Positions 27,211-42,435 of a DNA stretch of 64,000 nt are shown here, piece after piece; position 1 is the first letter of the stretch, and the number at the start of each line of letters is the position of its first letter. The notes beneath the pieces were generated by a model that was not told where the DNA came from, ran no database searches, and saw only the letters and a list, made by a program, of their open reading frames with translations. The position numbers were made by a program, and so were the translations under genes. Source of the DNA: Phyllosticta citribraziliensis (lineage: Eukaryota); NCBI RefSeq assembly GCF_038025025.1, contig NW_027117345.1, forward strand, positions 310,001 to 374,000, written 5' to 3'.

Positions 27211-27646
27211 GGAGCGTTCATGTGTAGTTGCTGTGTCGTGCTAGGGAGCGTTCGTGTTCGGAGGAGTAGTAGCAGGTGGGTAGGGAGCATTCATGGCTAG
27301 CGGCTGCGGCGTATCCTGGAGCATTCGTGTACATTGTAGTAGGGGTGTGGTCAGGGAGCATTCGTGCCCGTTGTGGTAGGTAGGCAGACATGGAGCATTC
27401 ATCACACTTTACGCCCACACCTAGGGAGCATTCGTGCCCGGAGTCGTATGCATCTGGATAGGAATGCTCCCTGTTAAGCTACTGCGTTAGACCTGGGAGC
27501 ATTCATCACGCCTCGCGCCCACACCTAGGGAGCATTCGTTCCCGGAGTCTTGTGCATCTGGATAGGAATGCTCCCTACCTAGCTACTGCGTTAGATCTGG
27601 GAGCATTCACGCCTATCTACGTACCACATCATCCCAAGGAGCATTC
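27211..27646. repeat. Array A: 13 copies of core GGAGCRTTC at 33-39 bp spacing with variable spacers; two copies inverted
   Basis: Cores start at 27211, 27245, 27284, 27318, 27355, 27392, 27425, 27462 (inverted), 27496, 27529, 27566 (inverted), 27600 and 27638. Confidence 0.9.
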
Positions 27647-28665
27647 ATTCGCCGCACCATCTCTCCCACATCTATATCCCTATCCCCATACCCACCACAT
27701 TCCACCTACTTACCACGCCTCCGCAGCCTCTATATAGCTCCGTTTAACAGCCTCAATCTCATTAACCGGTGCCATGGCGCACTGGTCACAGTAGCATGCG
27801 TAGACAAAGTAGACATTGTGGTTCCCAATCACGTTAGCGTGGCTCGCTTAGCGTCGCTTGGTGCGAAGCATTGGCGTTCGAGTCCCGTAGGGCGCATCGC
27901 ATTGTAGGTCACAAACAGCAGTAGTAGAGAGAGAGAAGTTGTGCTATTGAACAACGGTATGTAGAGGTGGTGATGGGGAAAGTGTGCGCATTTTGGTCCC
28001 ACGCCACGGACGCGGTGGCTGGTTGAGAGCGCTGAACTCATCCGCAATGGATTGGATAGGATAATCAATGGGAACGCCAGTGTAGTTGTGCGGGCGGGGA
28101 CGTCGTCGCGGGTGTCCGGGCCATTCAAGGGCTGGGCTGACAGCATGGGGGTTGTTGGTCGGGTGCTCTGCGTCAAGTGCTTGCGTGCGGCGGCCGGGGA
28201 AGCGAAAGGCTGGAGGCCCGCTCATTCGAGCAAGCTTCGCCGGGATGAAGCAGAGGGTGCCGGACCTTGCTTGTCAGCTCAAGTCGCCGCAGAGGGTGGA
28301 GAGGCGGGGAAGCTTACCAGGATAGGCGGAGCCTGTTGCTGCCAGACTTGAAGTGACTGCGGCGCCGAGGGCGGACGTCAACTCCACTGTTGTTCGGTTT
28401 TGTTTGACGCGTCAGAGTGCGTCAGTCTCGGGCAGCTCGCGCGGATGGCGTCCGTCATCTTGCAAGCAGATCTTGCAAGATGACCATCCAGGCTTTGCTG
28501 TGACAGGGGCGAACGGCGACCGTCCAGAGGCGGGTCGGTTGAAGAGGAAAGGTTGGGATGGTGAGTAACACACTGTTTTTATATTCGGCTCGCGTGTCGT
28601 CCCGGCGCTAGCCCAACTGGGCAGGCGACGCTCTGGGGAAGCGGCGCACGGGCCCAGATGCGTCC

Positions 28666-28692
28666 GCTTATCGCGCCTGATAAGCATCTATC
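28666..28692. promoter_or_regulatory. GATA-site cluster (candidate AreA/NIT2 nitrogen-control element) upstream of asparaginase
   Basis: GCTTATC-gcgcct-GATAAGC is a perfect inverted pair, with a third site TCTATC at 28687-28692, about 100 bp before the ATG. Confidence 0.5.
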
Positions 28693-28790
28693 AGGGAACG
28701 TCCGTCGACGGCGGAGAACAGCGTCGACGCGCGAACCTCATTCACATATAAGTTATAGCTGGGGAGAGACCTCAATTTCCATCTGATTCG

Positions 28791-39035: not shown

Positions 39036-39614
39036 ATGTCTTCCAACACCCCAAACACGACCGACAAAAACGACGCGCCAAGCGCTTCCAATGCCGCCAA
39101 CACCCTCTCCAGCAACCCCGACATCCTCGACCGCAGCCAACTCTCGCGCGCCACTCAGCTCCCGACGCACAACGTGTTCCGCCTGCCAAAAAAGGATACA
39201 GACAACGCGTACGTACGCACAGCGCTGATTTTCCCTTTCTTTCTTTCTCGACCGCGTCCTCATACTCGACAGCAGCGATGGCGATGATGCGCTCAACACC
39301 ACGGCCGACAGCACCACGACCACCAACACGACTATCAATGCGAGTCAGCCCTCCGGCAGCAGTGATGGTAGCGGCGGCGCGCATCTGCCAACGCACAACG
39401 TATTGCGCCCCCCTCACCATGCCGGGAATGTGTATGTCCTACCCAACTCCTCGCCCCATTCGCGTCCGAACCTCCGCGAGTGGCCGGGCGGCGTGACGAT
39501 TCCACCGGGCTAATATTTTACAGTGCCAGCGGCCTCGAAGCCACGCTGAACAACCCCCACGTGCCAGAGGAGCGGAAAGAGGAGGCAAAGGAGCGCTTGG
39601 ATGGTACCGCTTGA
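39036..39614 (+). CDS. Con-6 (conidiation-specific protein 6) family protein
   Basis: The last exon encodes SGLEATLNNPHVPEERKEEAKERLD, the Con-6 repeat. Upstream exon boundaries are approximate. Confidence 0.7.
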
Positions 39615-40084
39615 GGCACGTAAAGGCTCAGAAGAGAGGTCTAGAGCACCAGTGTCGTCGGCGGTGCAAGTTTGAAGGCAATGCACTCATTCACTGGCTT
39701 CGATGGATGCCTGGCCGATGGGGGACTGCATTGGTAAGTGTGGGAAAGCGATGTGGAGCTCGGAAATGATAATATAGCGAGGCAAAAACGAATTGATGAG
39801 CTGTGGAAGTCAACAACCGACACAAGCGCAACCATGGGTCATCAAGATTGAGCTTTCACCTGCTACCAGTACAGGCACACATGCCCAAAGGATTGACTCA
39901 CGTTGCTTCTCCACAAACCACGAGAGGAACGGTTTGCGCCACCGTCTTCGCATACAAAAAGCAGCCTCCTCGCCCACACTCTGCCTCTCACCTCCGATCA
40001 ACTACGCCTTTTCTTTGTACTCTAACCTATTTCTTTGTACTCTAACCTATTACAGAATCAAAGTTCTCTTTCAAGATACTGAGC

Positions 40085-41638
40085 ATGGGCATGATTGAAC
40101 TTACCCAAGAGGACTGTCAGACCTTGGAGGATGACTCCATTTTTCTCCCCTGCAACCATCGCGGCAAGTGCAAAATTTCAGCCTCCTTCCTTGTCGATTC
40201 TGCAATGCAGTCACCAAGCTCTGGTAGCTCTACGACGTCAGTCTCCAGCTCTTCTAGCACAGCTTCGGTTCGTTACGTCAGTGAAAAAATCCAGAAGGAC
40301 ACCGTCGTCGCAGAGAGGTTGGACAGCGCTGAAGCGCTCGAATTCATCGGCCTGAACCCCGAGACTGCGTCAAAAATCTTCAACCGCTGGGTCTCACGCC
40401 CAAAGGGTAACCCCGACGGTCTCTTGGACTACGTGTACGGCCATACAGGCCAGCTCCGTCGCGATTCATGGGCAAATTACTCGGATGCGCAAGCTTGCGA
40501 TATGCTCGGAATCGCATCGTGGCTGAAAGACGCCATCCTTCACTCTGATTACTCCGGTATCTACTTTACCCATGACCTCAAGCATTGGCTCGACAGATCG
40601 ATGAGGACGAACTTCAACTCTCTCGCTCGTATTCTCTCGCGGCTCAAAGTCCATGCCACCGTTCGAGGCAAGGGTGAGAACACAGAGCAGAAGAGAACAA
40701 GTCTCGGTGACGTCTTCCTGAATGCTCCAGGTGCTTCATCTTCTCCAGAGACCTCTTCTCGCTTTCCACATCCGCATGTCTACGTCGGCAACGCCGGACC
40801 TATGTTGGCAGACCATGAAGTATTCTACAAGGCGAAGGCCATCGACGAAATCGCATCGGACAAGGCCTTCATCGACGAAAACGGCAACATCGAAATGGAC
40901 GTCATTCGCAGTCACGCAGGCGGGGACTTCAATCCGCGAGAACCTGCTTGGTACTTCACGGCCGAGAAGGACACCGCCCATGCGTACAAGGCATACGCCG
41001 AAAAACGCTGTCCCAACTGCGAGGTGTGGATCATCTGCATTCAAGTTCCAAAGTCGTTCACGGCGACGCTGCGCAAGGAGGAGCTCTGGTTCTCCCACGA
41101 CTGGAGGGCGTACGTGTGGCACTGCAAAAAGGGGCACAAGGTGAGTCATTTCACTACTACGCCTGCGCTTGAGGAGCATTCATTCGCTACTACGCCTATG
41201 CTTGAGGAGCATTCATTCACTATAACGCCTATGCTTGAGGAGCACTCATTCACTACTATGCCTATGCTTGAGGAGCATTCATTCACCACTACACCTACGC
41301 TCAAGGAGCATTCATTCACCCGTCATCGTACCCTTGACGAACATCAACCCCAACTAATCGAATCCGCACAGTCGCACGAAATGCCCGACAAATACCACAA
41401 GTTCTGGCTGCCTGGCCCGAACCGCACAGACTTGATAGTCGGCCACATTTGCAAGGGCTCCGAGACCAGACCAATCTCCCGCATCCCCAAGGACAGAGTC
41501 CAAACCGAGATCGACCGGGACGAGACGGGTACCCAGTGGGTCGTGATGCAAGAGCCGGCCGCTGAACGTCTAGCACGGGCCGTCCGAAGCAAGATGCACG
41601 TCGAGATCTACGTGGGGAGGAAGCCCGAGGGCAAGTGA
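40085..41638 (+). CDS. Uncharacterised two-domain protein; C-terminal half resembles the DUF3990 / ADP-ribosyltransferase-like fold
   Basis: Long ORF with an in-frame 231-nt intron at 41141-41371. Motif order VFYK...GDFN...WYFTAEKDTA...IQVP...DWRAYVW...DLIVGHI...TQWV follows the DUF3990 pattern as I recall it. The gene call is firm; the fold is inference. Confidence 0.6.
   Translation: MGMIELTQEDCQTLEDDSIFLPCNHRGKCKISASFLVDSAMQSPSSGSSTTSVSSSSSTASVRYVSEKIQKDTVVAERLDSAEALEFIGLNPETASKIFNRWVSRPKGNPDGLLDYVYGHTGQLRRDSWANYSDAQACDMLGIASWLKDAILHSDYSGIYFTHDLKHWLDRSMRTNFNSLARILSRLKVHATVRGKGENTEQKRTSLGDVFLNAPGASSSPETSSRFPHPHVYVGNAGPMLADHEVFYKAKAIDEIASDKAFIDENGNIEMDVIRSHAGGDFNPREPAWYFTAEKDTAHAYKAYAEKRCPNCEVWIICIQVPKSFTATLRKEELWFSHDWRAYVWHCKKGHKVSHFTTTPALEEHSFATTPMLEEHSFTITPMLEEHSFTTMPMLEEHSFTTTPTLKEHSFTRHRTLDEHQPQLIESAQSHEMPDKYHKFWLPGPNRTDLIVGHICKGSETRPISRIPKDRVQTEIDRDETGTQWVVMQEPAAERLARAVRSKMHVEIYVGRKPEGK
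41152..41319 (+). repeat. Array C: 5 copies of a 33-bp unit with core GGAGCATTC inside an intron
   Basis: Cores at 41173, 41206, 41239, 41272 and 41305. Unit approximately GGAGCATTCATTCACTACTACGCCTATGCTTGA. Confidence 0.93.
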
Positions 41639-42435
41639 GGAGATGGGGTCGATGGCATTGGGGAGTTTGGGGATCGTGCGTTGGAGTTTTGGGATCCTGT
41701 GGGGGAACATGAATGGTCCGGGGAACATGAACGGTCCCGGAGTTGTGGCTTGATTTTTTTATTATTTTTTCCCTTTGTCCTCTTTGGATAAGGGTAGCTA
41801 GGTCATATTTCCATCTTCGGACTTGAATGCCTCCCTGCCTACTTGCCTCTCAATCGGCAATCACACCTGACCTGACACTTAGCAACTACCGACTCACGTG
41901 AAGCACGTAAAGCACGGTATCGCCTCGAGCACATAAACAGCGGGTAAGGTAAGGGGTCAGTCTCGCCGGCGACCTCAGTGTGGTGTAGGCAGCGCCAGTG
42001 CGCAGGCAGTCCTCTCTCCTCATCCCTCCGCTTCGACAGGTGCAGACGGCACGGCATGGGGAGCATTCAAGCGAGTCCGTCCTCTTCACCACATAGTCTG
42101 AGGTGGGGTTGTGTTGCCAAGTAGAGTACAGCCAGCACCGTGACAACAGCCAACATCTGACATTGAATCGGACTGATTCGATGGACGCCTCAAGCGGAAA
42201 CTGGAGGAACTCCTACCCATGCATCACGCCTTCACCGTCTTCGGAACGGCACAACGATTTGCCTTCCTTCCCGGGATAGCTGAAAAGGAAAAGGCCATGA
42301 TTGGTTCAGTTCGGTTTGGTTCCATCTACCTACCTACTTACCTACCAGCTACCAATCTACCCTCTGCCTGCTTCTCATCTGCCTGCATGTCTAGCGCACC
42401 AAACAGCGACGAAGCTGCATCTGACCACTCACACC

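Follow-up and report, generated by a model that had tools for sequence, protein, structure and literature searches.

Why should three tandem arrays in one stretch of fungal DNA share a 9-bp core and a pitch of approximately 33 bp but carry different spacers between the cores? This question is raised by a window of 64,000 nt from Phyllosticta citribraziliensis (contig NW_027117345.1, positions 310,001 to 374,000), which is part of the contig named C8 here and contains array A (27211..27646, plus strand), array B (33721..33894, minus strand), and array C (41150..41319, plus strand), all of them built around GGAGCRTTC. Arrays B and C are, very probably, ordinary remnants of MITEs, or miniature inverted-repeat transposable elements. 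[quoted passage not shown] That such a site was built into arrays, was spread by MITEs, and is still kept at loci such as array A is the explanation that is favored here with moderate confidence.

The core in the window and in the genome

In the window, 24 GGAGCRTTC motifs were found, 21 with an A and 3 with a G at the variable position, compared to 1.79 expected from 100 shuffles of the window, none of which gave as many as 24. The exact form GGAGCATTC had been counted 20 times before; the number is 21, and a minus-strand copy is present at 40720 as well. The genome, with a size of 31.35 Mb, harbors 1,743 copies of GGAGCATTC. Markov models trained on the fetched genome sequence led to an expectation of 304 to 344 copies, so that a control with the reversed pattern, which yielded 99 copies, overstates the enrichment. 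Chance accounts for about one-fifth of the GGAGCATTC copies, and the genome-wide excess is about 1,400 cores.

Pairs of cores on the same strand and 31 to 39 bp apart occurred 204 times in the genome and 0 times in the control, spread over contigs C1 to C18, and 64 core triples were located at 43 sites on contigs C1 to C17. The genes flanking long arrays were BRR2, a gene of the trehalose-6-phosphate synthase family, SLD3, HSP90, and the gene for threonine synthase. Contrary to the earlier suggestion, the arrays are no sign of a lineage-specific block, as pairs lie on C1 to C18 and beside housekeeping genes such as the first four.

Two MITE families carry the core

A comparison of 30 loci with core pairs revealed that they have elements in common, about 220 bp long and bounded by inverted ends, which were assigned to two families, F1 and F2. 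An F1 element starts with CACAGTGG, has the ends CAC..GTG and a terminal inverted repeat of about 27 to 28 bp, and this terminal repeat matched 249 times in the genome compared to 2 times in the control. Both ends were present in 34 of 60 regions picked by the terminal repeat alone. An exact 4-bp target duplication surrounded 19 of these 34, 6 more had one with a single mismatch, and none had a 5-bp duplication. The lengths of the F1 elements clustered near 119, 152, 185, 214 to 218, and 248 bp, in whole-unit steps of about 33 bp. F2 elements have a length of about 200 bp, a 34-bp terminal inverted repeat, and the ends C..G, with 40 end matches in the genome versus 0 in the control; a 3-bp target duplication, mostly GWC, was present in 8 of 19 pairs. 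Aligned with an offset of one base, the terminal repeats of the two families agreed in 14 of 28 positions (P = 0.038), too weak a match to assign a single enzyme to F1 and F2. Of the two families, the one whose outer part is longer possesses the shorter target duplication, 3 bp versus 4 bp.

Both families, with lengths from 119 to 259 bp, are short, non-coding, and present in many dispersed copies with terminal inverted repeats and a target duplication of fixed length, which are the properties of MITEs. This result upholds the earlier idea that a mobile system was behind the arrays. In view of the terminal inverted repeats and the target-site duplications, it does not support a system of an undescribed kind. 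The copies are old, with median pairwise identities of 0.74 in F1 and 0.68 in F2 and the highest value at 0.98. Contigs of sequencing run X4, which come from a related organism, possess these ends and linkers as well. A common gene family as the source of the shared units was also considered and rejected: coding flanks shared in a convincing way were absent from a translated comparison that took in the 30 loci plus the window. At one locus (L117:3969-5627), an open reading frame (ORF) similar to a retrotransposon gag adjoins an F1 end and is possibly inserted into or beside the MITE.

Array B consists of six 33-bp units within an F2 element. The six minus-strand cores reported at 33721-33894 were recovered, with a pitch of exactly 33 bp, and the F2 profile matched with an E value of 1e-26; the spacers resembled those of F2 with a z score of 8.4. 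The whole F2 remnant reaches from 33696 to 33959 on the minus strand and retains one terminal inverted repeat (33926..33959, minus strand), at which a loose contig end was found at 33958 in runs X2 and X4. The other terminal repeat has been lost, and the F2 profile match ends at 33696, short of it. A small minus-strand gene has its ATG at 33283, and the remnant is located about 410 bp upstream of it.

Array C contains five F1-type 33-bp units and no terminal repeat (F1 profile, E value of 3e-24; spacers, z score of 10.5), and the reported five cores at 41173-41313 were recovered, with a pitch of exactly 33 bp. It lies in a GT..AG intron on the plus strand (41141..41371), which has a length of 231 bp, or 7 times 33 bp, and no in-frame stop codon. 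The 77 codons of this intron are missing from six of six homologous proteins. A coding repeat with EEHSF units as the reason for the array was therefore rejected despite the open frame in array C, because of these 77 absent codons and because the gaps in array A would break the frame. Among the 15 of 40 splice joints that were listed, none crossed the array C intron, which carries no evidential weight. If retained, the 231-bp intron would add 77 residues with EEHSF repeats to the protein without a shift of the frame.

The spacers within array B and those within array C were 75 to 81% alike, as in ordinary tandem units. After masking of the core plus 2 flanking bases, which was done in all spacer comparisons with z scores, the spacers of F1 and F2 were related to each other with z scores of 6.6 to 7.6. 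Arrays B and C are thus not independent, as had been claimed, but members of two dispersed MITE families with related units. Arrays A and B do have the variant GGAGCGTTC in common, and AAGGAGCATTCATTC is found in the last core of array A as in that of array C. The statement that the spacers differ between the arrays holds in so far as they have diverged; they are distant relatives rather than unrelated sequences, arrays B and C are alike internally, and only the spacers of array A are near random.

The share of cores explained by the two families was estimated from samples of 30 and 39 cores. In 30 unselected cores, F1 or F2 profiles matched 9 at an E value of <0.001 and 13 at ≤0.05, leaving 17 without a match, and the profiles explained 9 to 13 of 39 cores from flanking sequences, with 26 of the 39 having no MITE match. 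Considering chance and this partial coverage, a part of the core excess is explained by neither. The sequences fetched for other organisms comprised 73 triples from metagenomes and 26 pairs from viruses. Similar spacers were present in 68 of the 73 triples, the 15 loci inspected proved to be short tandem repeats of an unrelated kind, and no match to the terminal-repeat part of the F1 and F2 profiles occurred in these scans, in which closely related genomes may be missing.

Conservation of the core

GGAGCRTTC is pseudo-palindromic, GRA-N3-TYC. Among the end-picked F1 copies, the mismatch to the consensus per cell was 0.129 in the core, 0.25 in the spacer, and 0.10 in the ends, the latter value being lowered by this way of picking the copies. 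In a tree of 33 elements, from which two rows were excluded (L115, whose alignment was poor, and a duplicate call of L183), the changes per cell on internal branches were 0.0096 for the core, 0.038 for the spacer, and 0.0062 for the terminal repeat (P = 3e-4). It is a new observation that the core of end-picked F1 copies is kept almost as well as the terminal repeats and that this is chiefly so on the internal branches. The constraint was consequently strongest on those lineages that kept transposing, as expected of a cis-element that would aid mobilization in the manner of the TnpA sites of Spm. The core behaves as a binding site should, as had been proposed, being conserved far better than the spacers.

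Array A and other arrays without terminal repeats

Array A is intergenic and contains 13 perfect cores at a pitch of 33 to 39 bp, with no mismatch in 117 core bases, whereas the identity of its spacers was 0.25 compared to 0.21 after shuffling. At the rates of the terminal branches of F1, 13 consecutive intact cores have a probability of about 1e-4 to 2e-4. The coordinates and the number of cores had been given correctly; two inverted cores, the gaps of 33 to 39 bp, and a 104-bp duplication had been overlooked. This higher-order duplication (27392..27609, plus strand) shows 12 copy-to-copy differences, none of which falls within the 36 columns of the cores (P = 0.008). In 27550-27646, 9 of 9 listed differences between array A and the related organism of run X4 were also outside the cores (P = 0.046). 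The contigs of run X1 leave array A uncovered, which carries no evidential weight.

The first inverted core (27462..27470, minus strand) stands in register and is probably the result of a micro-inversion in place of the pseudo-palindromic site. The second (27566..27574, minus strand) is a copy produced by the 104-bp duplication; its position between 4-bp inverted sequences suggests that the pseudo-palindromic site had been flipped in place. Together with G000:C7:376880, these were the sole inverted cores within the distances searched, and all of them kept a near-normal pitch.

No F1 or F2 end was found at array A, and no new inverted repeat with a score of ≥10 within 450 bp. The array, having neither terminal inverted repeats nor a target duplication around it, is a MITE derivative at most. 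A genome search with array A found only the array itself, with the limitation that 24-bp matches would be missed. With the cores masked, its spacers displayed a weak fit to F1 (z score of 2.8, P = 0.0035). An RNA structure as the basis of the array was rejected: the folding z score was -1.69, 7 of 100 shuffles folded as well, and Rfam gave no match over 26800-42200.

Array A is not the only one of its kind. An F1 or F2 end, defined as a profile match within 250 bp, a rule that misplaces a few sites, was near 25 of the 43 triple-core sites. That the other 18 are without a terminal repeat, and that array A among them combines 13 of 13 perfect cores with spacers near shuffled identity, is the other new observation. 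The longest arrays fall among these 18. Long arrays resembling array A are located at C8:1673924 (11 cores), C5:1644892 (12 cores), C3:469k (14 cores), and C2:1219361 (6 cores), with a core mismatch of 0 to 6%. The 85 spacers of arrays without terminal repeats were related to F1 with a z score of 12. The spacers of different arrays may be diverged relatives or may share a broad positional preference, two possibilities that the masked-spacer test cannot separate. Since cores were kept while spacers drifted, neutral decay fits arrays of the A type poorly, and continued binding may be inferred.

Other properties of these loci were considered. A special boundary position as judged by G/C skew was discarded because arrays with and without ends were alike (P = 0.32). 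The core as a general seed of minisatellites was rejected because, of 12 tandem repeats with a long period found within 388 kb of flanking sequence, no more than 2 carried cores. Cores occur also in local tandem repeats of 38, 48, 49, and 54 bp. An array with a half period of 17 bp exists at L213:308-544 (G000:C2 near 2259700), with intact and degenerate cores alternating so that two half-units add up to 34 bp.

Spacing and orientation of the cores

The spacing peak near 33 bp that had been forecast for the genome was present, with about 161 same-strand pairs at 33 to 34 bp (by subtraction). Distances of ≤32 bp were represented by 13 pairs, 35 bp by 0, 36 bp by 2, 37 to 39 bp by 33, 40 to 43 bp by 7, 44 bp by 8, 47 to 49 bp by 15, and 54 bp by 5, so that 13 pairs at ≤32 bp are opposed by 65 at 35 to 49 bp. 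Between 35 and 62 bp, 45 of 66 locus-collapsed pairs were within 1 bp of a comb near 33 + 5.25k (P = 5e-7); at 40 to 62 bp alone, 23 of 37 pairs were within 1 bp (Rayleigh P = 0.16).

Helical phasing, which had been suggested and which the comb resembled in a half-turn form, was dropped for spacings beyond the 33-bp unit because these fit a bias in insertion length. In the F1 end regions of 54 elements, 15 of 20 insertion events were 3 to 6 bp long, none was 2 bp, and one was 1 bp. Such insertions turn 33 bp into 37 to 39 bp and onward. This spectrum is unusual and may be a signature of repair or of transposon footprints in this genome. Deletions made up 15 of 35 indels at the F1 ends (15 to 19 when the 1-bp insertion is omitted), but shortened pitches stood at 12 to 58, so that shortening is rarer than deletion at the F1 ends (P = 0.005). 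The floor in the spacing fits a footprint near 32 to 33 bp, without proving it. Inverted pairs were searched at 24 to 54 bp head to head and 19 to 49 bp tail to tail, and 5 of them, four in array A, were found compared to 204 direct pairs in a range that was not identical.

A model for the origin of the arrays

The most probable course of events starts with an ancestral 33-bp unit containing GGAGCRTTC, which is the internal tandem repeat of F1 and F2. As the comparisons above show, the two families have dispersed the unit over the genome, gaining or losing whole units, and array B is an F2 copy minus one end and array C a group of F1-type units left in an intron. Binding at the core, which was statistically conserved almost like the terminal repeats along the transposing lineages, may have aided mobilization; the internal TnpA sites are thought to help the mobilization of Spm, as far as PMC9921582 describes them. 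Array A and the minority of long arrays without ends would be old derivatives of the 33-bp unit, with the cores kept and the spacers drifting. The kept cores in these arrays point to a protein still binding them, predicted to belong to the host or to derive from a domesticated transposon. The pitches of 37 to 39, 44, and 47 to 49 bp would result from a bias for 4- to 5-bp insertions into the 33-bp unit, to which the data conform in part, and shortening to <32 bp appears under-represented.

Several results weigh against this model. No transposase was present inside or beside 20 terminal repeats, each read over 6 to 8 kb, and searches for Transposase_21, Plavaka, DDE_Tnp_4, and RAG1 were blank, with the controls remaining silent for three of them and the control for DDE_Tnp_4 responding in 1 of 14 cases. 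F1 and F2 differ in the length of their duplications and have weakly matching ends, so that one common transposase is not established. Changes on terminal branches showed a modest deficit in the core, 0.086 compared to 0.127 in the spacer (P = 0.007), and singleton changes were no different (0.025 and 0.023, P = 0.76); ordinary copies therefore look nearly neutral after insertion. All arrays were located via their cores, which favors intact ones. The differences between the copies of the 104-bp duplication are clustered, hence stem from fewer independent events, and the comparison with run X4 had 40 of about 1,595 difference rows listed from a run that apparently mixes two related organisms. 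The fit of the array A spacers to F2 was not significant (P = 0.087), and their likeness to F1 and F2 could reflect an extended binding preference rather than descent.

These results leave room for other explanations. All arrays including A might be neutral MITE debris, the conservation being apparent only, produced by the finding of arrays through their cores and by events at the cores, either template switching or unequal exchange, which would bring in diverged spacers. Such debris agrees with the F1 or F2 ends at 25 of 43 triple-core sites, the profile matches of 9 (E < 0.001) or 13 (E ≤ 0.05) of 30 unselected cores, the equal singleton rates of core and spacer, and pitch classes that fit the insertion bias. 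It is rather unlikely nevertheless, considering the unbroken row of 13 of 13 perfect cores in array A with spacers at shuffled identity, the same situation in the arrays at C8:1673924, C5:1644892, C3:469k, and C2:1219361, the point differences that miss the cores, and the missing close match of array A elsewhere, even if 24-bp matches would be missed. Alternatively, the host may have come first, with an old site for a general host regulator, for instance, a roadblock or insulator protein, being duplicated locally and captured later by F1 and F2. This order of events is unlikely because the spacers of end-less arrays resemble the F1/F2 unit along its length, just 2 of the 12 tandem repeats with a long period in the flanks contain cores, and the base-skew test revealed no special boundary position; it would account for end-less arrays that look older than F1 and F2, for a unit carried in two shells of unlike duplication length, for the roughly 1,400 excess cores with no MITE match in 17 of 30 and 26 of 39 sampled, and for cores in local repeats of 38, 48, 49, and 54 bp.

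Two further mechanisms would build the arrays in other ways. In meiosis, the core might determine where Spo11 cuts, and 33-bp double-cut pieces might be duplicated or reinserted. Double cuts of 33, 43, 53, and 63 nt are reported in bioRxiv 2019.12.18.881268, a series that starts at 33 nt, and ectopic insertion of double-cut pieces in mice is reported in bioRxiv 2026.02.11.705388; spacing peaks at 33, 44, and 54 bp and a floor near 33 bp resemble that series. The second-largest class at 37 to 39 bp and the peak at 47 to 49 bp are outside of it, however, inverted pairs are rare (5 versus 204 direct ones, in ranges not identical), most arrays lie within elements bearing ends and duplications, and the insertion bias accounts for the comb, which makes the Spo11 origin very unlikely. 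An acquisition similar to that of clustered regularly interspaced short palindromic repeats (CRISPR), in which the core is duplicated by an integrase that also puts in foreign pieces of 24 bp, would produce a constant core with near-unique spacers as in array A. It is extremely improbable: the spacers are related to one another and to the MITE units, with 75 to 81% likeness in B and C, the repeat has only 9 bp, Rfam had no match in 26800-42200, and no integrase-like gene was near the arrays examined.

The MITE-based model could be extended, tentatively and with more doubt than confidence, to an undescribed DNA-binding system of a Phyllosticta lineage. GGAGCRTTC would be read by a predicted host or domesticated transposon protein whose footprint is about 33 bp, the MITEs would have exploited this site, and the host would maintain the long arrays. 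In that case, two MITE families would have used GGAGCRTTC for their mobility and seeded more than 1,000 extra copies, and the long arrays beside genes such as BRR2, SLD3, and HSP90 would serve the host as regulatory or chromatin landing pads.

Single cores and neighboring genes

Besides the arrays, the window contains three single cores. The core at 20393..20401 (plus strand) has no F1 or F2 profile match and is due to chance or a relic. The core at 40720..40728 (minus strand) is within a coding sequence in which the plus strand reads N-A-P and is most likely there by chance. A weak F2 match with an E value of 0.01 was found for the core at 42060..42068 (plus strand).

The host gene of array C (40085..41638, plus strand) encodes a protein of 440 amino acids after splicing; its homologues are labeled as Phyllosticta proteins, and no Pfam family was found for it. 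A perfect 20-bp duplication at 40010-40051 is immediately upstream of this gene. Two small genes near the arrays had no Pfam family in the exons scanned, and nothing ties either of them to the motif; the labels "Myb-like" and "ART-like" were used for genes in the original prediction only. A small minus-strand gene contains a coding tandem repeat of 78 bp at 30570-30804 in 2.8 copies with GR-K-rich units, and run X4 skips 235 bp there. On the minus strand at 27940-28528, between array A and an asparaginase gene, a CT..AC intron of 52 bp is skipped in contigs from both run X1 and run X2.

Comparison with known systems

A literature search, with subscription journals and repeat databases outside its scope, gave no description of the GGAGCRTTC motif or of the F1 and F2 families among the papers listed, nothing relevant on repeats in Phyllosticta, and nothing on a connection of Harbinger with Myb; judged by title, none of the papers listed for the motif dealt with a fungal repeat. 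A telomeric or interstitial telomeric origin was rejected, with TTAGGG at 4 of 6 contig ends read and no core in all 6. CRISPR arrays have repeats of >20 bp, unique foreign spacers, and cas genes; the arrays described here have a 9-bp core, related spacers, no Rfam match, and no cas-type gene among the window ORFs scanned, and do not belong to them. PIF/Harbinger elements (Tourist) have a 3-bp duplication and a DDE_Tnp_4 transposase and prefer TWA or CWG as target. The duplication of F2 has 3 bp, its preference is GWC, and the DDE_Tnp_4 search mentioned above was blank.

Chapaev elements make 4-bp duplications. Chapaev belongs with EnSpm/CACTA, Mirage, Transib, Plavaka, and ESTA to the CMCT clade, for which duplications of 2 to 5 bp are given in PMC12730594. 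The CA..TG ends (CAC..GTG) and the 4-bp duplication of F1 are within the range outlined there; F2, with its 3-bp GWC duplication, ends in C..G and lacks CA..TG. No DDE transposase with C(2)C and H(3-4)H motifs, another feature of the clade, was recovered in the searches described above. F1 resembles Transib and RAG in starting with the heptamer CACAGTG and favoring GC-rich targets, as described in PMC1131882. Membership in Transib or in the recombination signal sequences was nevertheless rejected because the duplication has 4 bp, with a 5-bp duplication in 0 of 34 elements, and because the F1 consensus has no A-rich nonamer at 12 or 23 bp, measured against the features given in PMC1131882.

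As a whole, the system is mostly of a known kind, that is, MITEs carrying a minisatellite, of which P. gingivalis is said to offer another case. Its added value is a testable example of how a cis-element may pass from a transposon into the service of the host. One 9-bp site was under constraint in the lineages that transposed and apparently still is in arrays that have lost their ends. If the binder were found, it would be a new sequence-specific factor in plant-associated fungi, MITE interiors would be seen to become multi-site platforms, and a concrete mechanism would exist for cassettes of the short interrupted repeats cassette (SIRC) type.

The SIRC of Arabidopsis, short direct repeats with diverse DNA between them that occur genome-wide and were proposed to come from end-less MITE interiors (PMC10342631), is the closest match for array A, which likewise consists of short direct repeats and diverse spacers. 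SIRC repeats have many sequences of 10 to 29 bp in 2 to 8 copies, according to the ranges in PMC10342631; array A and its relatives have one 9-bp core at a pitch of about 33 bp in up to 13 to 14 copies, so that array A qualifies as a SIRC-like cassette with a single core and copy numbers beyond that range. Minisatellites borne by MITEs are established, as documented in PMC6947457, and F1 and F2 share with the MITEs described there the short non-coding sequence, the terminal inverted repeats, the target duplications, and a dispersed minisatellite of variable unit number. They differ from them in having two shells with unlike duplication lengths but related units and a 9-bp core that is kept like the ends. 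For this core, the internal TnpA binding sites of Spm, as described in PMC9921582, are the best model.

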